A stretch of DNA of 64,000 nucleotides from Minisyncoccota bacterium (GCA_031972295.1 DALYEZ010000001.1:57759-121758), one strand, 5' to 3'. Positions 5,840 to 55,017 are shown, numbered from the stretch's first letter. Made by a program: numbers and translations. The notes: a model not told the origin generated them from the sequence alone.

Positions 5840-6373
5840 ATGAACTTCACAAATCCTACAATTCACATAGACGCTCTCGGTCTTAATCCAGGCGATGTAG
5901 TTGTAGACCTTGGAGCAGGAAGTGGTGCATATGCAAAAGTTGCAGCCAGAGCCGTGACAGCACGAGGTACTGTCTACGCAGTTGATCTCAATCGCGATCT
6001 TCTCACCCGACTCAAGAAAGACGCGACAGACGAACAGTTCCTTAATATCGATACTGTTTGGGGTGACATTGAACGAGAAAATGGCGTACAACTTACCTCA
6101 CACATTGCAGATGCAATTTTACTTTGCAATACGCTTTTCATGGTGGAAAACAAGCAGGGACTGTTACAAGAAATAAAACGTATTCTAAAACCAAAAGGAA
6201 AAGTACTCATTGTTGAATGGAGTGATTCTCATGGGGGAGTTGGCCCACACAAAGATCATGTTTTCAGTGAAGTAGAAGCAAAAAACCTTTTTAGTGCCGA
6301 CGGATTCACTATCTCTCACGCAAGCGACGACGCATCGTACCATTATCGATTTGTCGCAACAAACAATATATGA
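5840..6373 (+). CDS. class I SAM-dependent methyltransferase
   Basis: VVDLGAGSGAYA glycine-rich motif I. Confidence 0.6.
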   Translation: MNFTNPTIHIDALGLNPGDVVVDLGAGSGAYAKVAARAVTARGTVYAVDLNRDLLTRLKKDATDEQFLNIDTVWGDIERENGVQLTSHIADAILLCNTLFMVENKQGLLQEIKRILKPKGKVLIVEWSDSHGGVGPHKDHVFSEVEAKNLFSADGFTISHASDDASYHYRFVATNNI

Positions 6374-28992: not shown

Positions 28993-29454
28993 ATGGCGGA
29001 TGCAAATATAGAAATCCTTAAAAAGGAAACCTATTTGAAAGCTATAGAAAATAGCGTGGGGAGCAGACTGTTTAATTCTCTTTTTGTTAGATATAAACAT
29101 ACAGGAGAAGTAAAAGATATTTTAAATAACTGCGAACTCTCTTGTGCATTCTTCACAAGCAACATACTTCTTATGTTTGGAGTATTCGAGAAACCATTTG
29201 CAACAGTGAGAGGTTTGAAAGCATCAATTGATCAAAATTGTAAGTGGAAAAAGATTTCCCTTGGTGAGGTTGAAAAAGGGGACGTGGTCTTCTGGGAAAA
29301 GAAAAAACATGAGGACGGTACCGAAACGGCACATGTCGGATTCATGATTAATAAAGAAGAAGCAGTTTCAACAAGTACTCAAAGTAAAATGGTTGCTCGA
29401 CATTCAGCAATGAATAGGGCAATAGACAGTATTTACAGATACTCTTGGGAATAG
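28993..29454 (+). CDS. hypothetical protein (possible Cys/His hydrolase fold)
   Basis: ORF only; Cys...His spacing is suggestive but weak. Confidence 0.3.
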   Translation: MADANIEILKKETYLKAIENSVGSRLFNSLFVRYKHTGEVKDILNNCELSCAFFTSNILLMFGVFEKPFATVRGLKASIDQNCKWKKISLGEVEKGDVVFWEKKKHEDGTETAHVGFMINKEEAVSTSTQSKMVARHSAMNRAIDSIYRYSWE

Positions 29455-29562
29455 CACTTATTTTGACTTTAATATAAAATATGGCATTATGTATCTAAGA
29501 GTTCTTTAGGTCTTAATGCTGTAGTGTTGTGCTGTACCAATTCAACTGATGCGGAGGTTGCC

Positions 29563-29892
29563 ATGCCAAGAGACATTTTTTCGGATAATGAACCAAGCGA
29601 TGAGGAGATCATGGAAGATGTGAGTGACCAAACATTGCGTCACATGCATCTTGGTGAAAACATCAACTACCTCAGCAACAAACTGTTCGACCACACTGGG
29701 ACGCTGGTTGACGGTACCACCAAGGACGACGTCGCAAGAATGACAACTTATGCCAAGATCGGACTCCTGGAACGCATGTACAACCACACCCAAATGCAAG
29801 GCACCGGCCTGTGTTGGGAAATCGGTGCTTTCCTAGAAGACATCAGTGAGGATGAGAAGCGAGGCTTCAAGACCACTGACGACTACAACTGA
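29563..29892 (+). CDS. hypothetical protein
   Basis: GGAGG SD before MPRDIF; acidic protein. Confidence 0.35.
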   Translation: MPRDIFSDNEPSDEEIMEDVSDQTLRHMHLGENINYLSNKLFDHTGTLVDGTTKDDVARMTTYAKIGLLERMYNHTQMQGTGLCWEIGAFLEDISEDEKRGFKTTDDYN

Positions 29893-29895
29893 ACA

Positions 29896-29958
29896 CAAAC
29901 CCGCTTTGATGCGGCAAATGGAAACCCGTTTGCTTTCATCGGAGCGGGTTTTCTTTTT
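29896..29958 (+). terminator. compound hairpin terminator (aacccgct...agcgggtttt)
   Basis: seen in sequence. Confidence 0.4.
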
Positions 29959-29974
29959 GACCTATAGAAGATTA

Positions 29975-30005
29975 TAGACATAGATAGGTAATCTATGGTA
30001 CGAAT
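29975..30005 (+). promoter_or_regulatory. TAGACA-N18-TACGAAT promoter
   Basis: same architecture at 30722 and 32500. Confidence 0.35.
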
Positions 30006-30050
30006 TACTTGAACAAGTTCGTTCACATACAAGCACAAGGGGAATCCGAG

Positions 30051-30665
30051 ATGAACAAGCCACAGATCAAGAGTATTGGAGCCGGTTCCGTAACTGTTTC
30101 TGGTTTGACTCGAGAAGATGAGGAACTCTTCCAAGGACTCATCAACGGTCATCAACGCCTCAGTGTAGTTGATGGCAAGCTCGTTGCAACAGCTGTTCAT
30201 GAACCGCTGCCTGATCCAACTACGGATGAGGAGATGGCTCCATTCTGGCGTAGATGCGCACCGAATGAGGGAATACTGCAAGAAGAACTGTTCGATCGTG
30301 AGAACTATCAGAACAGCCTGTCACCATCCATCCTGATTCAGTCGTTGTGCGGATATGGTTATACACCTGAGGCTTACCGAAATCAATCGGAGCGTCTCAA
30401 GGGATATGGATTCGCGCAATTACGATCGCAACGCAGTCCCAGTGGTCAGTACTACGAGATCTGGTATTTGGCTGGTCTCTACCTTGCCCAAGGTGGCCTG
30501 GCGGAAGCTGTCGCCAAGTTCAAAAGCAACAACATGAACCTGAAAGACACCCAGGAGTACGCAAGGCGTTCGTTTAAAGCGGCCACAGACTTCTTGGCGG
30601 CGAATGTTCGCTTCGGAACTCTCGATGTGTCCGTCCAACGGTGGGCGATGTGCATGTCAGATTGA
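30051..30665 (+). CDS. hypothetical protein
   Basis: SD aagggga before ATG 30051 (30009 is a TTG). Confidence 0.4.
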   Translation: MNKPQIKSIGAGSVTVSGLTREDEELFQGLINGHQRLSVVDGKLVATAVHEPLPDPTTDEEMAPFWRRCAPNEGILQEELFDRENYQNSLSPSILIQSLCGYGYTPEAYRNQSERLKGYGFAQLRSQRSPSGQYYEIWYLAGLYLAQGGLAEAVAKFKSNNMNLKDTQEYARRSFKAATDFLAANVRFGTLDVSVQRWAMCMSD

Positions 30666-30682
30666 GGGTATCCAAATTTAGT

Positions 30683-30718
30683 CCGTCACGATGTTGTGGC
30701 GGACTTTTCTTTTTATAT
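30683..30718 (+). terminator. intrinsic terminator agtccgtcac...gtggcggact plus T-run
   Basis: seen in sequence. Confidence 0.45.
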
Positions 30719-30721
30719 TAG

Positions 30722-30752
30722 AAACAAAGTCTAGACATGACACAATGTTGCG
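30722..30752 (+). promoter_or_regulatory. TAGACA-N18-TATGAAT promoter
   Basis: shared architecture; leader homologous to the one upstream of 31491. Confidence 0.35.
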
Positions 30753-30797
30753 TGTTATGAATTATTTACTGTTCTTTAACCAACCAGGAGATTCCTG

Positions 30798-31337
30798 ATG
30801 AAAGCTCTCGTAGCAGCGATTTTCGTCATTTTGATGGTCATAGTAGTAAAGCCTCTCTCGCGGATGAATCCTCCAACGGGTGGACTCTTCATGGCTGTGG
30901 CTTTCATCCTCGTACTCATTCTGTTGGATAGAGCAGAAGAGCACTTCCATAAGAAAAAAGGAAAGAAGGAGAAACGTCCTCGAAAAACGATTTCTACGAT
31001 TTATCGCAACTATGAACCAGTGCTACGATGGTCCATTCAAGATAAGGATAAGGATACGGATTATGATCCGGACACAGCCGTTTTGTTCGATTCCGTCGTC
31101 GCAGTCGATGTGAGTTTCAAACAGTCAGTACATCTTCGAGATGGATGCGCTGTCGTCGCTGAATGTGCAGCGGCCAAGGGCAGTAACGATCCGATCAAGC
31201 TCGGTTGGGAACACCGAACCATGCGTCTGTTTTTTGAAGGAAGTTTTTTCGATAAGCAGGGACGGAGAGTTGTGGGATGCCGCAAACTCACCATGCTTTC
31301 CGACGGGAAGATGTACGCATCAGGCGTTCGCTACTAG
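30798..31337 (+). CDS. membrane protein, family A full length (2 TM, basic linker, conserved C-terminal domain)
   Basis: AGGAG SD; C-terminal domain homologous to the 31896 gene (AVDVxFxQS, AEC, GCxKLxxLxxGxxYAS). Confidence 0.5.
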   Translation: MKALVAAIFVILMVIVVKPLSRMNPPTGGLFMAVAFILVLILLDRAEEHFHKKKGKKEKRPRKTISTIYRNYEPVLRWSIQDKDKDTDYDPDTAVLFDSVVAVDVSFKQSVHLRDGCAVVAECAAAKGSNDPIKLGWEHRTMRLFFEGSFFDKQGRRVVGCRKLTMLSDGKMYASGVRY

Positions 31338-31347
31338 AAAGTTCATA

Positions 31348-31406
31348 GACGGGAGGGAAGAAATTCCTCCCGTCTCAAGCCACTCAATTGAGTGGCTTTT
31401 ATTTTT
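31348..31406 (+). terminator. two-hairpin terminator (gacgggagg...cctcccgtc, then agccactcaattgagtggct plus U-run)
   Basis: the same two-hairpin design follows the 31896 gene. Confidence 0.5.
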
Positions 31407-31490
31407 CATAACAGAATAGACATTCATAGACGAAATAGTATATTTGTGGTAATAATTATCCATTGTTCTTTAACAGAAATGGAGGTTTGC

Positions 31491-31650
31491 ATGAAAGCTC
31501 TTCTGTTCATCATCTTGTTGGCCACACTGGCAGCAACGCTTCTTTCAAGTGTCGAGTCTCTGTCAGCAAAGATCGGCATCATTGTGGTAATGATCGCCAC
31601 ACTTATTTTCTGCGATATATATTCGCGGAAGAAAAAAGGGGGTGGACTCT
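31491..31650 (+). CDS. small 2-TM protein resembling the N-terminal module of family A (MKAL..., ends RKKKGGGL)
   Basis: GGAGG SD; upstream leader (ttgttctttaac) and first codons (ATGAAAGCTCT) shared with the 30798 gene. Confidence 0.4.
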
Positions 31651-31834
31651 AATGAGATTCCTTGCACTCCTATTAATGGTTTGCGTGATTGGCCTCACGT
31701 CGATAGTGCTTCGAAAGGTTGATTTTGTACTAGCAAGAGCCGCCATCATTCTTTTTTCCATCATCGTATTCATTCTCCTCGAGAGATACATCTCTGGGGA
31801 AAGGAAGGTCCGAAGGAGAAAAAGAAGAAGGTAA
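31651..31834 (+). CDS. small 2-TM protein resembling the N-terminal module of family B (MRF..., poly-Arg tail)
   Basis: its ATG directly follows the preceding TAA (TAATGA junction). Confidence 0.35.
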
Positions 31835-31895
31835 ATGGCAAGCTTAATCCAATAGACATCGACCGTGTCGCGAAATGAAATAAGGAGAAATTCCG

Positions 31896-32420
31896 ATGAG
31901 ATTTGTTGCGATCCTTTTCTGGATTGGTTTGCTGATATACCTGCTTTTACAGCAGGATGCTGAAACGAACAAGGGTCTTGGTGTTATAGCAGTGATCCTG
32001 ATGGGGACTTTTCTCTGGTGGCTCATCCAAAAGAAAAAGGCACCTGAGCAGAAAGATACGATGCGTCGGGCAATTACGATAAGTGTCAATTACTTGGATC
32101 GAGAGTCGCCAATACGTTGGCTCCTCCACCACCAAGAATATCCCGAAACCGTCCAGGCTTTACGATCTGTCTTTGCGGTTGATGTACGTTTTCTGCAATC
32201 AAAGGACTACGAAGCTGGGTACATCTGTACCTTGATCGCCGAATGCTGGATTGCCATAGGCAATGAAATGCCTCCTTCGGTACTCGAAAATGTTCTTTTG
32301 TCTTTCGATCGTCGCACTGGTTTTTTTACCGATAGATCTGGGAAGATTGCTGTAAGCTGTGGCAAACTCTATCTTCTTCCGAATGGAAGCATCTACGCCT
32401 CGAGTATCCAGTACAAGTAA
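31896..32420 (+). CDS. membrane protein, family B full length, paralog of the 30798 gene
   Basis: AAGGAG SD; conserved C-terminal domain. Confidence 0.5.
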   Translation: MRFVAILFWIGLLIYLLLQQDAETNKGLGVIAVILMGTFLWWLIQKKKAPEQKDTMRRAITISVNYLDRESPIRWLLHHQEYPETVQALRSVFAVDVRFLQSKDYEAGYICTLIAECWIAIGNEMPPSVLENVLLSFDRRTGFFTDRSGKIAVSCGKLYLLPNGSIYASSIQYK

Positions 32421-32426
32421 TTTCAT

Positions 32427-32482
32427 CAGATGAAAGAACAGGGAGTTCTTTCATCTGAAGCCGCTCAATTGGGCGGTTTTTT
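32427..32482 (+). terminator. two-hairpin terminator (cagatgaaagaac...gttctttcatctg, then gccgctcaattgggcgg plus U6)
   Basis: 13-bp stem then a second hairpin with the same caattg loop as at 31378. Confidence 0.5.
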
Positions 32483-32499
32483 GTTGTAAATATTTTCCA

Positions 32500-32530
32500 T
32501 AGACAGAAATATACAGTCGTGGTACGAATG
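32500..32530 (+). promoter_or_regulatory. TAGACA-N18-TACGAAT promoter
   Basis: seen in sequence. Confidence 0.35.
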
Positions 32531-32564
32531 AGGAGTTGCACAAATACAACCAGAGGAGAACAAC

Positions 32565-33287
32565 ATGTCAGGTTACATAAGCAGTGCTGTGGAACAAGGT
32601 GACAGGGAATATCAACAAGACCGAGATTTCATCAAGGTGGCAGAAGGATATTCTATTCTTGCCGTCATGGATGGTCACGGCGAGAGAGGGTCGGAGATAG
32701 CGGAGTTCTGCAAGGTAGCCATCGGCGAGATTCTCGCAAACGAGGGGTACGCTTCAGATCCGGAAGAAGTGATCGGAAAGATCTTTACTGAACTCCTCGA
32801 GAAAGCCCCGTACCAGCACGATGGCGGCACAACACTTTCAATCGCCTGGATCAAGGAAGACAAAGCGGTCATCGGTGTGCTCGGCGATTCGCCGGTGCTG
32901 GTTGTGGACAAGTCTGGGCGGTGGTACAAGAGTCCTCTCCACAACACTTCAAACCAAGCAGAAAAGGATGCTGTTTTGGCAAAGGGTGGAAAGGTCGTCA
33001 CCAAGAACAACTGTCTGTACTTCCATGACCCCATGCATTACGGCGAGTACATCCAACTCAGCCGTGCAATCGGCGACAAAGTGTTCCAGGACATTCTCTT
33101 GCGAGAACCTGATATCTACACTGTCCCGAACCCCAAGTATGTTCTGGTTTCAAGCGACGGACTCCGCAGAGCAATCGCTGTAACCGTAAAAGACGACTCG
33201 ACCGCAGAAGGTCTCATGGAAGAAGCCAGGAAGTATGCCGGCGGGTTGTGGGACAATACCACGGTTCTTTTGTGGAAAAGTGCGTGA
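32565..33287 (+). CDS. PP2C-family (PPM) Ser/Thr protein phosphatase
   Basis: YQQDRDF...AVMDGHGERG...GDSPV...SDGL motifs. Confidence 0.75.
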   Translation: MSGYISSAVEQGDREYQQDRDFIKVAEGYSILAVMDGHGERGSEIAEFCKVAIGEILANEGYASDPEEVIGKIFTELLEKAPYQHDGGTTLSIAWIKEDKAVIGVLGDSPVLVVDKSGRWYKSPLHNTSNQAEKDAVLAKGGKVVTKNNCLYFHDPMHYGEYIQLSRAIGDKVFQDILLREPDIYTVPNPKYVLVSSDGLRRAIAVTVKDDSTAEGLMEEARKYAGGLWDNTTVLLWKSA

Positions 33288-33445
33288 GGCAAATAACGCA
33301 AACCATCTACCCTTAGAGAGGCCGATACACTGGTCTCTCAAGGGAGGTGGTTTTTTATTTTTATTAGAGGATAGAGATAAAAATTTTATACGCTATACTT
33401 TGAAATATGCAAATTACTAAGCTTGGAAATTGAAATACAATAAAT

Positions 33446-33904
33446 ATGAACCACTGGCTCATTAAAAGCGAACCTGATTGCTATTCCATAGACGATCTTA
33501 AGAAAGACAAGAAAATTCCTTGGAATGGCGTACGAAACTACCAAGCTCGTAACTATATGCGAGACCATATGAAAGTAGGGGATGTAGCCCTCTTTTATCA
33601 CTCAAGCACTAAACTAACAGGAGTATATGGTGTAGCAAAAGTTGTAAGTAAACCTCACGCTGATGTAAGTGCCACAGATCCGAAGGACGAACACTTCGAT
33701 CCGAAATCAACAAAAGAAAAACCAATTTGGGAATGTGTGGACTTTGCGTTTGTTAAAAAACTTCCACGAGCAGTATCGTTGGAGGAAATAAAGAGGGATC
33801 ATAAACTAGGAGGGATTATGGTTGCACAAAGAGGATCACGACTTTCAATCCAACCAGTAAGTAAAGCTCATTTCGATAGGATCATTGATTTGGGAAATAA
33901 GTAA
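33446..33904 (+). CDS. EVE (PUA-like) domain protein
   Basis: MNHWLIKSEPDCYSIDDL...WNGVRNYQARNYMR...GDVALFYHS typical of the EVE family. Confidence 0.7.
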   Translation: MNHWLIKSEPDCYSIDDLKKDKKIPWNGVRNYQARNYMRDHMKVGDVALFYHSSTKLTGVYGVAKVVSKPHADVSATDPKDEHFDPKSTKEKPIWECVDFAFVKKLPRAVSLEEIKRDHKLGGIMVAQRGSRLSIQPVSKAHFDRIIDLGNK

Positions 33905-34439
33905 GATGTACACCGTAAAGATAAATCCTAAATCACGGTATCTTCGTATTCGCATCAAACCAGGTGGCGAAGTACTGGTAACCGTACCTAAAAATGTAAA
34001 CTCATCGGTAGTAGCTAAATTCCTGCAAGATAAACACGATTGGATAGAGAAGAAGGTAAAATTGATGGAGCAATATTCAAAAATTCCAAAGGTTACATTA
34101 TCGAGAAAAGAAATTACCGCACTTAAAACAAAAGCACTGACATTTATAGAAGAACGTCTTCTATACTTCAATACAAAATACGGATACGAGTGGAATACAA
34201 TTACAATACGACAGCAGAAATCACGATGGGGAAGCTGCTCTAAGAAAGGCAATTTGAACTTTAATTACAAGATAGCATTACTGCCAGAACATCTCGCAGA
34301 CTATATTGTTGTTCATGAACTCTGCCACCTTGGAGAATTTAATCACTCAGATAGATTCTGGACACTTGTTGCTCGCACCATTCCAGATTATAGAGAAAAA
34401 AGAAAAGAACTTAGAGAGAAAGGAGTGGTGTTTCAATAA
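33885..34439 (+). CDS. DUF45 / YgjP-like zinc metallopeptidase-fold protein
   Basis: WGSCS...YIVVHELCHL (HExxH) as in YgjP. Confidence 0.7.
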   Translation: MIWEISKMYTVKINPKSRYLRIRIKPGGEVLVTVPKNVNSSVVAKFLQDKHDWIEKKVKLMEQYSKIPKVTLSRKEITALKTKALTFIEERLLYFNTKYGYEWNTITIRQQKSRWGSCSKKGNLNFNYKIALLPEHLADYIVVHELCHLGEFNHSDRFWTLVARTIPDYREKRKELREKGVVFQ

Positions 34440-34454
34440 AATTTCGTTTCTGTT

Positions 34455-34982
34455 TTGAGTCCAATTTTGTTATATTGTTTTAAAGATCGTAATCAACTTA
34501 CATCCATAATGACCTCAGGAAATAATTTTACAAGCAAACAAGAGTCTGGAAGTAGTAAAGAGTTACAGAAAGCGATGTATAGTCAGTGGTTTTTTATCCC
34601 ACTAACTCTTGCTGGGATTATTGGATTAATCTCAGGAGATTTTTTGCTCGGAATTGTTGTGTTCTTTATACTCACCATTTCTGAAACCGTTCATGTATAC
34701 CTTCCTTATGCAAATGATAATCCACAAAAGCTTTGGTTTAAACGAAAGATGTATGGATGGGGATGGGTACCTGTTACTTGGCAAGGATGGTCTGCAACGA
34801 CACTTTATAGTGCTGTTTTAGTATATTTTACTGTTACCCTCCCTCAAAGGCCTTCCGCACACGAAATAGTTTTTAACCTCCTTTTTCCAATAATCATTGT
34901 GACCCTGATGTTTATTTACCTTGCCTACAAAAAAGGCGAACGTCCAAAATGGCAATGGGGTATTAAAAATAATAATTTCTAA
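34455..34982 (+). CDS. hypothetical multi-pass membrane protein
   Basis: hydrophobic helices. Confidence 0.35.
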   Translation: MSPILLYCFKDRNQLTSIMTSGNNFTSKQESGSSKELQKAMYSQWFFIPLTLAGIIGLISGDFLLGIVVFFILTISETVHVYLPYANDNPQKLWFKRKMYGWGWVPVTWQGWSATTLYSAVLVYFTVTLPQRPSAHEIVFNLLFPIIIVTLMFIYLAYKKGERPKWQWGIKNNNF

Positions 34983-34987
34983 GGCTT

Positions 34988-36658
34988 TTACTTTTTTGTG
35001 ATCAGCGAAGCACGAACTAATCGAATATCTTCAAAAGAAGTTTCAACTTTTTTAGATTTACACAGTTGTATAATTTCTGTCAGTTTTGCCTCAGGATTTT
35101 TTGTAATAATACTAGAAATCATTTTGTGATGGGGGATAGGAGTCGCTAAATATTTTATCTTGAGGTCCGCCCCTTCTTTTAGTAAATCCTCAATATGAGA
35201 AATAATTGTTCCCGGAGTTAAATCTCTTTTTTCTGCAATTTCTTGCAAAGACAATTTTTCTTCAAGATATTTTTTTGTAATCATTCGCGTAGGGACTTTT
35301 TCTTCGTGTTCACTCTCAGATTCTTCTTGCTCTTCAATACTGCCATAGGCACGAGTAATAAAAGCCTCGTGGAGCTTTATAAGCTCAACTGCAGAATATT
35401 TTTCTAATGCGTTTTGAGCCCGAATAGATTTCGCGTGGAGCTCTTTATCAAGCATTAAAATTTCTGGATGCATGAGGAGTGCGTCATCATGAAAACCTAG
35501 AAGCTCAACACCTTCTATGGTCCGCACACGAGAAAGGGCAACATAACCCATTCCGAACGTAAATGTCTTTGAGAGGTCAATCTGAGCAGCGTCAAGCGTC
35601 ATTCCTTGTGACTTGTGCACAGTAATAGCCCAGGCATATCGAAGAGGAATTTGTTTTATTTCCGCCTTCACCTTTCCATCTTCTTCTATCCTCCAAGCAT
35701 CTTCTGTGACCGTTAATTCTGCGCCCGAGACTGTTTTTACGACAGGGAAGCCAAGATTGGTAAACTTTATAACAACCCCGAGTGTACCGTTATTATATCG
35801 CTTTCCTTGATCATTTTTTACAAACATAACCCTAGTTCCAACTTTAAGTTTCAGAGTCTCTGGCGCAAGACAACTTTGTATCAAACTATCAACAAGATTT
35901 GCTTTACCTTTTGTCTTCATCTCAAAAACTTTTTCTTCATCAGATATTTGTGCGTACTCAGTATTATTAATACGGTCAACATCTTCATTATGTGTGTATA
36001 GTTTGGTATGTGTAATATGAGCAACACTTTTTTTTGTCGAGCCCACAAGCGTACGTTTTAAATTATCTTCCAGGGTGCCAGAACGCATATCTCGCAAAAC
36101 CAAAGAAAGATTGTCTCCGGTATGACGATACTCAGTAGTCAGATAACAAACAACAGGATTTAGTTTTTTCCAAACTTTCGCATTAAATGCAAAATCATTC
36201 ACGCTCACTTCTTTATTTCTACTAACAGGAGGGAGTTGGAAGAAGTCTCCACAAAACACCACTTGCATTCCTCCAAATGGGCGACTGTCTTTACGAATAG
36301 TTCGTGCAACCAAATCAACCATATCAAGCCGATGAGCGTGGAGCATCGATATTTCATCAATAACAAGCACCTGAGTGCCTTTGTAGCGCGTATATAAATT
36401 TTTCTTTTGCTCTAACTCATCTAAATCATATTCAGTAAGTCGATCTTTGATTCCAATTCCGGACCAAGAGTGAAGTGTTACTCCTCCTATGTGCGTTGCT
36501 GCAATACCAGTAGAAGCAGTTATGGCCGCTGAAATAACATGAGACTTAAGCCATTTAATATATTCATTAAGCACGTATGTTTTACCTGCACCAGCTCCGC
36601 CAGTAAGAAATACAGAGTGTCCTAGTTTTAGAATAGCGAGAGCATCTTCCTGAGTCAT
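34988..36658 (-). CDS. PIF1/RecD-family ATP-dependent DNA helicase with C-terminal HTH-like domain
   Basis: Walker A GGAGAGKT, Walker B VLVIDEISML, ITVHKSQG motif. Confidence 0.8.
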   Translation of the reverse strand: MTQEDALAILKLGHSVFLTGGAGAGKTYVLNEYIKWLKSHVISAAITASTGIAATHIGGVTLHSWSGIGIKDRLTEYDLDELEQKKNLYTRYKGTQVLVIDEISMLHAHRLDMVDLVARTIRKDSRPFGGMQVVFCGDFFQLPPVSRNKEVSVNDFAFNAKVWKKLNPVVCYLTTEYRHTGDNLSLVLRDMRSGTLEDNLKRTLVGSTKKSVAHITHTKLYTHNEDVDRINNTEYAQISDEEKVFEMKTKGKANLVDSLIQSCLAPETLKLKVGTRVMFVKNDQGKRYNNGTLGVVIKFTNLGFPVVKTVSGAELTVTEDAWRIEEDGKVKAEIKQIPLRYAWAITVHKSQGMTLDAAQIDLSKTFTFGMGYVALSRVRTIEGVELLGFHDDALLMHPEILMLDKELHAKSIRAQNALEKYSAVELIKLHEAFITRAYGSIEEQEESESEHEEKVPTRMITKKYLEEKLSLQEIAEKRDLTPGTIISHIEDLLKEGADLKIKYLATPIPHHKMISSIITKNPEAKLTEIIQLCKSKKVETSFEDIRLVRASLITKK

Positions 36659-50130: not shown

Positions 50131-51159
50131 TTAGACAGTTCGTCCTGTTTTCAAAACATGGTCTACAAGTGTATATGTATACCCCATTTCGTTGTCATAC
50201 CACCCTAAAACTTTTACTAAGTTTCCTCCCACAACTCGCGTCATCTCTAGGTCTGCAATAGAAGCATGACTTTCTCCAAGAATATCAGTTGAGACAATTG
50301 GATCGTGCGTTACAGAGAAAACCTTATTCCACTTTTCACTCTTGGCTGCTTTTTCTAAAATAGCATTCACTTCTTCCTTAGTTGTATCTCGTTTAGCGAT
50401 GAAAGTAATGTCGACAATCGAGCCAGCAACAACAGGTACACGAATAGAAATACCATCGAAAAGTCCTTCTAATTTTGGAAATGCTTTAGTAACCGCAATA
50501 GCAGCTCCAGTTGATGATGGAACAATATTCATTGCAGCAGCTCTTCCCTCTCGGAAATCTTTTTTGTTTGGACCATCTACAATACCTTGGCTCGCTGTGT
50601 AGCCATGAACTGTATTTAGAATTGCTTTTTCTACACCAAGCACTTCATCTAAAATCGCAATGAGCGGAGATGCTGCATTTGTGGTACATGATGCATTTGA
50701 AGTAATGTCACAAGTACCGAACTTTTCTTCATTAACTGACATCAAAATAGTTTCACCTTGTGCACTACCAGTATCACCTTTTGCAGGAGCAGAAATGACT
50801 ACTTTTTTTGCACCCGCTTGAATATGAGCTTGAGATTTTTCGTATGTTGCAAAAAGTCCAGTTGACTCAACAACAACATCTATATCAAGAGCTTTCCACG
50901 GTAAAAGAGTTGGATCTTTTTCTTGAAGAAATGTAAGAGGTGCACCATCGACAAGAATTGATTTCGCATCTGCAGATACAGCAACAGAAAAACCAGGATT
51001 TCGATATACAGTGTCGTATTGCAAAAGGTACGCAAGATTGTGAACATCACCAAGATCATTTACTGCAACAACTTCTATCTCAGGATTCTTGTGTGCAACT
51101 CGCAAAAAGGCTCGGCCGATGCGACCAAATCCATTGATTCCTACTCGAATTTTTTTCAT
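50131..51159 (-). CDS. gap: glyceraldehyde-3-phosphate dehydrogenase
   Basis: VGINGFGRIGR; catalytic SNASCTTN. Confidence 0.9.
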   Translation of the reverse strand: MKKIRVGINGFGRIGRAFLRVAHKNPEIEVVAVNDLGDVHNLAYLLQYDTVYRNPGFSVAVSADAKSILVDGAPLTFLQEKDPTLLPWKALDIDVVVESTGLFATYEKSQAHIQAGAKKVVISAPAKGDTGSAQGETILMSVNEEKFGTCDITSNASCTTNAASPLIAILDEVLGVEKAILNTVHGYTASQGIVDGPNKKDFREGRAAAMNIVPSSTGAAIAVTKAFPKLEGLFDGISIRVPVVAGSIVDITFIAKRDTTKEEVNAILEKAAKSEKWNKVFSVTHDPIVSTDILGESHASIADLEMTRVVGGNLVKVLGWYDNEMGYTYTLVDHVLKTGRTV

Positions 51160-54039: not shown

Positions 54040-55017
54040 CTACTTCAACAAATTCTGTATTGCCTGAGCCAGGAGCATGCTGTCGTGACGGATAAAACTT
54101 CGGCTTTCGGCAATAGCATCTGCTTTTTGAAAAGAAACTGTCGTTTGAGATAAAAGTGGAAGCCGAACAATCTTTTTATTCGTAGGGAGGTCATCTATTA
54201 CAAGTACTCCATCTCCCTCTTGAAGCTCGTATTTTTCTAACTGTTCTTTTGACGGCGGAAAGCTATTAACCAACACAATATCGAGCGATCTTTTTAGATA
54301 ACTTTCCACATCTTCAACATAACCCTTTGCTGTCCAATACAATGTATGACCTTTTTTGTTTGTAAGATTTATGGGGAAAATAATTTTTGCTTTTGTTTTT
54401 TGCAAAGCTTCAACCATCCCAGAAACTGCAATATTAGGAAGCACTGAGCAGTAATAGTTTCCCGGACCAAGAATAATAACATCTGCGCTCTCTATAGCTT
54501 CAAGTGCACGAGTATTGAGTACAACATTACTTTCATAGTGTATCTTCGCAACTCCCCCAGCCTGCATGTCGGTGTGATTAATTGCATCCTCACCCCTTAA
54601 AAGGGTCCCATCTTCGAGTGTAATACAAAGATTAGCTTCATCATCAGTTACAGGAATAACTGCTCCTCGAACTTTCAGGATGTCACTCGCCACTTCAATT
54701 CCTTTTACAAAACTCCCTGTCACTTTCTCAAGTGCTGCAAGAAAAATATTTCCAAAACTATGTCCCGAGAGTCCACCTTCCTCGAAACGATACCCCATCA
54801 ATTTTCGCACCGTATCTGAATGTTCAGAAAGTGCAATCAAACATTGCCGCACATCTCCTGGTGGCAAAACACCAAGCTCATCTCGAAGCACGCCCGTAGA
54901 ACCTCCGTCGTCAGCCATAGAAACAATTGCAGTAATTTGTACGTCAGAAATAGTTTTGAGACCAGAAAGAATAGTGAAGCTTCCGGTACCGCCACCGATT
55001 GTCACAATCTTTTTCAT
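54040..55017 (-). CDS. YvcK/UPF0052 (CofD-like) family protein
   Basis: IVTIGGGTGSFTILSGL...DDGGSTG. Confidence 0.7.
   Translation of the reverse strand: MKKIVTIGGGTGSFTILSGLKTISDVQITAIVSMADDGGSTGVLRDELGVLPPGDVRQCLIALSEHSDTVRKLMGYRFEEGGLSGHSFGNIFLAALEKVTGSFVKGIEVASDILKVRGAVIPVTDDEANLCITLEDGTLLRGEDAINHTDMQAGGVAKIHYESNVVLNTRALEAIESADVIILGPGNYYCSVLPNIAVSGMVEALQKTKAKIIFPINLTNKKGHTLYWTAKGYVEDVESYLKRSLDIVLVNSFPPSKEQLEKYELQEGDGVLVIDDLPTNKKIVRLPLLSQTTVSFQKADAIAESRSFIRHDSMLLAQAIQNLLK

Follow-up and report, generated by a model that had tools for sequence, protein, structure and literature searches.

We show here that a 64,000-nucleotide stretch of DNA from a probable Patescibacteria genome (DALYEZ010000001.1:57759-121758; the whole stretch is hereafter called the window) carries a horizontally acquired, strain-variable island, and that two genes of this island, A and B, are the products of a tandem duplication, the duplicated unit comprising a two-helix transmembrane (TM) hairpin, a basic linker, an all-beta domain of ~115 amino acids (aa) and a terminator. 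The island consists of small cassettes bearing Shine-Dalgarno (SD) sites, each full gene being closed by a terminator-like hairpin, and it lies amid a mostly leaderless core. The domain shared by A and B belongs to a sizeable family that is absent from curated libraries, with at least 164 clusters at 50% identity across phages, Planctomycetes and Patescibacteria. We hold these descriptive parts, i.e. family membership, architecture, island status and operon structure, with high joint confidence. The function of the A/B cassette can be proposed less firmly: it might be a membrane conflict module derived from a phage, a reading that we favour but regard as tentative.

Tandem duplication of a gene and its terminator

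The initial annotation described this locus as a cassette of paralogous two-TM membrane proteins, ordered as full A, A-type hairpin, B-type hairpin and full B, followed by a PP2C-family Ser/Thr phosphatase. The five open reading frames (ORFs) are all present where it had placed them (Table 1), and the modular description is correct. A and B are paralogues with 34% identity over their C-terminal 140 aa (BLASTP, E=1e-19), and each ends in a domain of ~115 aa. The N-terminal modules of A, of B and of the two short genes between them, A-mini and B-mini, all show two hydrophobic segments of 19 residues, a short polar turn between them and a tail rich in Lys and Arg (Kyte-Doolittle scan and alignment). 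The duplication is real and a homologous terminator was copied with each full gene. The motif AAGCCRCTCAATTGRGYGGYTTTT of the terminators of A and B is found at those two sites only, against an expectation of 0, and since the two terminators are homologous, the duplication must have copied the gene plus its terminator. The product of A is identical in several aquatic metagenome assemblies, and the same goes for the whole locus.

A-mini had also been said to copy the leader and first codons of A, and it does. A motif (C/T)TGTTCTTTAAC matching at 11 of 12 positions lies ~30 nucleotides (nt) upstream of an identical ATGAAAGCTCT start in both genes, within a 42-nt stretch of 71% identity. The number of copies of this 12-mer is by itself no greater than chance would give (2 against 1.2 expected); it is meaningful because it has the same spacing to an identical start.

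The proposal that each gene is an independent transcription unit fails for A-mini, B-mini and B, as no terminator-like hairpin separates these three. The mini-genes overlap by 1 nt, with a TAATG junction (stop of A-mini at 31650-31652, ATG of B-mini at 31652-31654), and B begins 61 nt downstream of B-mini. Given the overlap, the short gap and the lack of a terminator among them, the three genes look like a single operon. Terminator-like hairpins are enriched in the region (29000-34500; 9 found against 4.4 +/- 2.1 expected), and the scan places them downstream of the neighbouring 204-aa gene, of A (31377-31398) and of B (32457-32480). Promoter-like sites show no overall enrichment in this region.

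A run of six A and five G (GAAAAAAGGGGG, 31632-31642) lies just upstream of the TAATG junction and has equal length in two independent assemblies. The frame of B-mini is open through all of A-mini, giving an ORF of 123 aa (31463-31834), and by the reading frames a -1 shift, or a change of one base in the length of the run, would yield one four-TM protein containing both hairpins. Further, a 24-nt inverted repeat with 22 of 24 complementary positions brackets B and the PP2C gene, with one arm inside B-mini (31676-31699) and the other over the PP2C stop codon (33283-33306). Its score was equalled by one in 60 mononucleotide shuffles of the region, and it might be an inversion or recombination site.

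An undescribed protein family

The C-terminal domain of A and B could not be assigned to any family in the initial annotation. Indeed no named family matches it, yet a large unnamed one exists. An exhaustive HMMER search with the alignment of the A and B domains gave 164 proteins at E<1e-3, 32 of which at E<1e-10, and with a profile of A and B alone the matches reach 1e-15. Reciprocally, a hidden Markov model (HMM) of 74 family sequences, including the two domains, matches A at 2.2e-33 and B at 4.8e-34. The relatives are nearly all soluble, stand-alone proteins of 110-140 aa in which the match starts at residue 2-5, and they share the motif IVSANYRDRxS..WLVR..V.F..S..E.GFGC..VA.C..F.G..F..G..V..C..L.L..DGSM.A, with three conserved cysteines. 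Family members have no match in Pfam, NCBIfam, PHROGs or the sequences of PDB, and a tblastn search with one member gave none in GenBank phages and PLSDB plasmids. A word-indexed homology search with full-length A retrieved A itself only, and a metagenome scan with patterns of the TM-fused subfamily retrieved no relatives. The sole name given to any member by the sources is 'hypothetical protein' (Schlesneria paludicola, P0125). That the domain might come from a well-known family of trivial function, a prospect raised along with the initial annotation, can thus be set aside, as the family is uncharacterised and phage-associated.

Membrane tethering is rare in this family. Only 4 of 150 representatives (~3%) have N-terminal TM segments, namely A, B, P0075 and P0042, the last with a single predicted segment; the contigs of P0042 and P0075 are too short for an informative gene context. 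A and B have also drifted from the family at its most constrained sites. Among the 33 columns conserved at 75% or more, A keeps 22 and B keeps 23, where the family as a whole has a median of 30 and never falls below 18. The positions lost, about a third, include in part the polar N of ANY, an Arg, an E and the GFG of GFGC, and this suggests that the ancestral activity was lost or changed. Among the soluble members, 59 of 148 (40%; P0025-P0172) end in alanine, far above the usual frequency, most commonly as PA (11), AA (11), TA (6), EA (5) and SA (5). Such endings could be a degron-like signal or result from overlap with the next ORF.

Members of the family occur in metagenome-assembled genomes of Patescibacteria and Parcubacteria and of the planctomycetal Pirellulaceae and Gemmataceae, on 11 IMG/VR viral contigs and on 18 metagenome contigs, sometimes as tandem pairs. 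The gene of Schlesneria paludicola is in a prophage, with a helix-turn-helix repressor and CsrA on one side and Mu Gam, terminase and portal genes on the other; a C5 DNA methylase also lies near it. Neighbours of other members include ParB_N-methyltransferase fusions, YqaJ recombinase, AAA_24, SNF2/ResIII helicases and GpA terminase. In phage genomes, family genes sit where the early, replication and anti-restriction functions are encoded. Two contigs carry two soluble copies each, adjacent in the metagenome contig L048 (3368-3736 and 3902-4363 of that contig) and at 1332-1700 and 6001-6348 in the IMG/VR viral contig L020. Duplication of the domain is therefore not peculiar to the window.

Possible fold relatives among phage proteins

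The AlphaFold2 model of the domain is all-beta, with nine strands (pLDDT 87.5, pTM 0.81), and no solved structural relative was found for it. A Foldseek search against BFVD gave 19 phage matches at E<0.05 (TM-score 0.52-0.69), followed by an abrupt fall to E>1. The top match is protein U5Q1I1 of Bacillus phage Staley (135 aa; E=3.8e-4, TM-score 0.62-0.69), one predicted model being here compared with another. We take U5Q1I1 to be Staley_110, the sole 135-aa coding sequence in the Staley genome, and Staley_110 matches the Pfam family PF25735 (Phage_L5_gp82) at 1e-31. The remaining matches are of two types, small phage proteins that are uncharacterised and segments of very large multidomain phage proteins named for ART-PolyVal-like, Zeta-toxin, PcfJ-like or lysozyme domains. 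The large ones are the polyvalent proteins, conflict proteins that phages deliver early (PMC5512222); the matching domain in these proteins was not nameable from that source.

At the sequence level the PF25735 HMM matches neither A, nor B, nor any of the 74 family members among hits listed up to E=10. An hhalign comparison of the family with a 9-sequence alignment of L5 gp82-type proteins gave a probability of 1.9% and E=0.026, though it was colinear over 90 columns. A search of the literature on L5 gp82 and PF25735 yielded nothing usable. Structure comparison, which had been proposed as a check of the initial annotation, agrees with it in pointing to no well-known family; it adds a likeness to PF25735 among predicted viral models, and on these models the link would hold at the level of the fold only.

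A hotspot with probable exchange of whole cassettes

Comparison with related genomes, another check then proposed, proved informative. In the sister-strain loci L005, L006 and L007, the flanks are ~92% identical (nt) to ours, synteny is lost at position 29480 of the window and is regained at 33445 (blastn). In L005-type strains the 3.96-kb block is replaced by ~830 bp holding a gene in the same AAGGAGAATTCTGATGAAAGCTCT context, whose 59-aa product has two TM segments and 42% identity to A-mini, and an unrelated 137-aa gene; of the cassette, these strains keep only this A-mini homologue. The locus L035, 92.5% identical, lacks the NlpC/P60-like gene next to the island and the 109-aa gene within it, and keeps the 204-aa gene with its terminator. 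At the position of A, behind the 204-aa gene and the GGAGAATCCTGATGAAA context, it has a third divergent full-length paralogue, only 33% identical to A, which encodes the two-TM hairpin and a domain bearing the motif IVSANYRNRKS in canonical form. In this hotspot, which lies between the GSDH and NlpC-like genes and the EVE gene, strains that otherwise differ by ~8% have among them a minimum of three full alleles plus three hairpin-only genes. This points to an exchange of cassettes from a wider pool or to very fast diversification, and speaks against ordinary vertical divergence. The alternative cargo of L005 (10821-11234 of that locus) encodes the 137-aa protein with its own SD site, directly downstream of the 59-aa hairpin gene; it has no Pfam match and might serve the hairpin peptide as another soluble partner.

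The island also differs from its surroundings in composition and translation signals. Its GC content is 0.45-0.54, against 0.32-0.41 in the flanks. The contrast between strong SD sites in this locus and leaderless core genes, already noted in the initial annotation, is borne out by counts: SD matches of at least 4 nt precede 7/7 island ORFs and 16/61 core ORFs, the latter being the ATG-ORFs of at least 100 aa in the window (hypergeometric probability ~2.5e-4, computed by hand). In many of the 45 core ORFs without an SD match, the ATG is closely preceded, within a few bases, by a TATAAT- or TATACT-like box, the arrangement expected of leaderless mRNAs; examples lie upstream of 2386, 18772, 40124, 50131-51159(-) and 54040-55017(-). 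Use of SD sites against a leaderless core could thus serve as a simple sequence marker of foreign genes in this lineage. A 34-nt inverted repeat around the island (29437-29470 and 33465-33498, 71% complementary) was considered as a pair of element ends and rejected, because the island-free sister strain aligns across both arms, which lie in the flanks. An Rfam scan of the window found one tRNA only.

One might argue that the island is no more than the inert remains of a prophage or mobile element that has decayed, and that A and B serve a phage, e.g. in anti-defence or takeover, and bring no benefit to the host. The phage association of the family and the foreign GC content and translation signals would fit, as would the tandem soluble pairs on phage contigs such as L048 and L020. 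But no phage structural, integrase or replication genes are found in or next to the island, its seven ORFs are intact and have SD sites, and a terminator-like hairpin follows each full gene. The TM-fused form is known from this lineage, P0075 and P0042 (with one TM segment), and from none of ~30 phage and metagenome loci. Three different intact alleles occupy the hotspot between flanks that are 92% identical. We therefore consider it unlikely that the island is debris.

Table 1. Features of the island and its immediate upstream neighbour (positions in the window)
Feature	Position	Strand	Remarks
NlpC/P60-like gene	28993-29454		153 aa; no signal peptide; directly upstream of the island
Strain-variable island	29481-33444	.	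~830 bp instead in L005; partly replaced in L035
109-aa gene	29563-29892	+	own SD; unmatched in Pfam, PHROGs and PADLOC; not in L005 or L035
Hairpin downstream of the 109-aa gene	29897-29951	+	terminator hairpin with T-run
204-aa gene	30051-30665	+	family of solitary genes scattered through Patescibacteria genomes
Hairpin downstream of the 204-aa gene	30680-30705	+	intrinsic-terminator-like; conserved in L035
Gene A	30798-31337	+	179 aa; hairpin (residues ~3-43), basic linker HKKKGKKEKRPRK, C-terminal all-beta domain
Two tandem hairpins downstream of A	31349-31400	+	second is a terminator homologous to that of B, 82% identity
Sigma-70-like promoter match, best of the region	31417-31444	+	TAGACA-16-TATATT, 10/12, upstream of A-mini; consensus match only
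A-mini	31491-31652	+	53 aa, hairpin-only; two TM segments, RKKKGGGL tail
B-mini	31652-31834	+	60 aa, hairpin-only; two TM segments, RKVRRRKRRR tail
Gene B	31896-32420	+	174 aa; paralogue of A, same architecture
14-bp perfect hairpin, then terminator, downstream of B	32426-32481	+	terminator homologous to that of A
PP2C-family Ser/Thr phosphatase gene	32565-33287	+	240 aa
Hairpin and T-run downstream of PP2C	33313-33362	+	island end; seen by eye, not flagged by the terminator scan

The hairpin-only genes

A-mini is closer to the 59-aa stand-alone gene of L005 (42% identity) than to the N-terminal module of A (32%), and that gene is intact in a strain without A and B, in the same SD-ATGAAAGCTCT context. 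This argues for a stand-alone hairpin lineage rather than a recent truncation of A, and A-mini is probably a real gene. B-mini is 33% identical to the N-terminal module of B, and an HMM of the N-terminal module found no homologue of it outside this strain in the fetched loci; from its sequence, its status as a real gene is uncertain. The same HMM retrieved no additional hairpin gene, either from the window or from the other loci.

The mini-genes might be functionless, i.e. pseudogenised leftovers of tandem copies that lost their C-terminal domain. They lie exactly between the full copies, each being 32-33% identical to one N-terminal module, gene callers ignore them and the protein collection does not contain them. 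For B-mini no homologue was found elsewhere, and a dN/dS of ~0.57, with dS near saturation, between A-mini and its L005 homologue does not indicate strong constraint. Yet both ORFs are intact, have SD sites, encode two TM segments and a basic tail, and are translationally coupled. Their divergence from the full genes, with dS saturated, is too old for an unselected ORF of 53-60 codons to stay open easily. The decaying duplicates evoked in the initial annotation are accordingly not favoured for A-mini, given its intact homologue in a sister strain, and B-mini lacks such support. Taking the two together, loss of function seems an improbable account.

Holins are usually small, with two TM segments, a short turn and a highly basic C-terminal tail. 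The mini-genes have these features and could be class II holin-like members of a lysis cassette with the NlpC/P60-like gene, A and B being then holin-like hairpins fused to a cytoplasmic regulatory domain. The 59-aa homologue of L005 lies 124 nt downstream of an NlpC/P60-like gene, and the product of the latter, which is 96.7% conserved in L005-type strains, has no signal peptide and shows sub-threshold matches to NLPC_P60, to Amidase_5 (phage peptidoglycan hydrolase) and to a PHROG endolysin family. However, all these matches fall below curated cut-offs and tblastn found no match to the protein in 50,697 phage genomes. The mini-proteins match no holin family in Pfam or PHROGs, their best matches there being sub-threshold and to unrelated small membrane families. 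L035 has a full-length paralogue but not the NlpC-like gene, and this gene lacks an SD site and looks like a core gene. A lysis cassette is thus a rather remote prospect.

The PP2C gene and other neighbours

The phosphatase gene was correctly identified, with matches to PF00481 (45.2 bits for a gathering threshold of 20.3; 1.2e-11) and PF13672 (38.7 for 24; 1.1e-09). PP2C enzymes are marked by the metal-coordinating Asp motifs DGHG, GDS, SDG and DN, and the protein has MDGHG at residue 35, DGGTT at 86, GDS at 107, SSDG at 196 and WDN at 229. The initial annotation suggested a membrane signalling or effector system made of A, B and the mini-proteins and attached to this phosphatase. The PP2C gene is adjacent, on the same strand and in the same island, its catalytic motifs are intact, and there are Ser and Thr residues in the cytoplasmic linkers and domains. 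But no PP2C gene was found beside family members or 204-aa homologues in the 65 fetched loci (~500 kb), and the 64-kb window has no Hanks-kinase motif. The PP2C gene has its own SD site and terminator-like hairpin and comes after the double hairpin terminator of B. It is absent from L005 along with the rest of the island, where a hairpin mini-gene is kept. The signalling proposal is thus unsupported and we judge it very improbable. The best reading of the PP2C gene, whose product has no match in phage genomes (tblastn), is that of an independent cargo gene in the neighbourhood, not a demonstrated partner. More generally, the island lines up cargo genes that are independent of one another and does not form a conserved multi-gene system.

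The 204-aa gene is another such cargo. Its homologues are set among unrelated housekeeping genes, next to BipA and TGT, FtsA and YbeY, or MacB (L030-L035), and share the strongly conserved motif IQSLCGYxYTPE...GF..LRS...E.W.L. The protein has no Pfam or PDB match and its model matches generic folds only. In L032, a protein with AbiJ_NTD3/AAA_15 domains, a defence-type ATPase (647-2602 of that locus), lies ~2.5 kb upstream of the 204-aa homologue, a faint hint that this family also frequents defence neighbourhoods. Just downstream of the island (33446-36658), and conserved in sister strains, are genes for an EVE (PUA-like) protein, a YgjP-like metallopeptidase and a PIF1-family helicase with HTH_40. 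Genes of these types often accompany restriction or defence loci.

Discussion

There is nothing unusual about the phosphatase. The domain family is real, of considerable size and undescribed, and its form tethered by two TM segments is a rare derivative. What could such a derivative do? We tentatively read the A/B cassette as a conflict module because it combines a phage-derived domain, membrane tethering, duplication, turnover at a hotspot and foreign expression signals. From the positive-inside rule of charge, the hairpin would be N-in/C-in, and with both ends in the cytoplasm it would keep the beta domain on the cytoplasmic side of the membrane. A and B have probably given up the original role of the phage protein and may be membrane-tethered binders or decoys. 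Their role would most likely lie in phage-host or inter-element conflict at the membrane, in superinfection exclusion or as an effector of the abortive-infection type. The hairpin-only peptides, if co-transcribed with B as it seems, could associate with the hairpins of full-length A and B and adjust how these assemble, as antiholins do with holins. This specific version, with tethered binders or decoys, hairpins acting on the membrane and mini-peptides modulating assembly, seems to us somewhat less likely than not, and is far less firm than the descriptive parts.

Several points weigh against a conflict module. The role is deduced from context and pattern of variability alone, and the pairing of mini-peptides with full-length proteins is a conjecture. 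The topology comes from hydropathy and charge rather than from a dedicated predictor. No integrase, tRNA or recognisable phage structural gene was found in or beside the island. The PADLOC-DB v2 models match no defence system among the island proteins, the only hit being a spurious one of A to Cas10b (E=0.021). Finally, these genes are known here from sequence alone, the mini-ORFs being uncalled by the pipelines of public assemblies, and the dN/dS between A-mini and its L005 homologue is a weak sign of constraint.

One may speculate further that the host keeps tethered and catalytically degenerate copies of the domain, namely A, B and the third allele of L035, as a phage sensor. The soluble homologue of an infecting phage would co-assemble with them and cluster the hairpins, the resulting membrane lesion would cause abortive infection, and the mini-peptides would be antiholin-like brakes. 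We think this a long shot. If true, it would be a new kind of phage-sensing effector in Patescibacteria, and an arms race with the phage protein would account for the rapid replacement of alleles. To our knowledge, very little is known about phage defence and exclusion in this group. If the more general reading as a conflict module is upheld, the cassette would be a rare membrane-tethered derivative of a phage domain in a hotspot that swaps whole cassettes between ~92%-identical strains, a pattern typical of conflict loci. The value of these genes is as candidates for experiment.

How do A and B compare with known systems? Their C-terminal domains match the soluble early phage family end to end, are likewise all-beta and ~110-125 aa long, and have the same framework of Trp, Phe and Cys residues. 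Unlike these, they are fused to a two-helix hairpin and reside in a chromosomal island without phage genes. The family resembles PF25735 (gene 82 of Mycobacterium phage L5) in that both are small phage proteins from early regions near genome ends, but those of the L5 gp82 type carry an additional segment at the N-terminus and are without the conserved cysteines of the family. The mini-proteins are like class II holins and antiholin pairs in size (53-60 aa), in having two TM segments and a basic tail, and in the translational coupling of paired hairpin genes; they differ in having no match to holin HMMs, no clear endolysin partner and no phage lysis module.

Finally, the CBASS effector Cap15 is made of two TM helices and a minimal beta-barrel. 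The beta domain of A and B has no structural similarity to solved Cap15-type effectors, and PADLOC and Pfam models find no CD-NTase or other signal generator among the island genes. The likeness is one of architecture: by hydropathy and the AlphaFold2 model, A and B also have an N-terminal two-helix anchor followed by a small all-beta cytoplasmic domain. By analogy, this suggests a membrane effector that would be triggered by a ligand or a partner.

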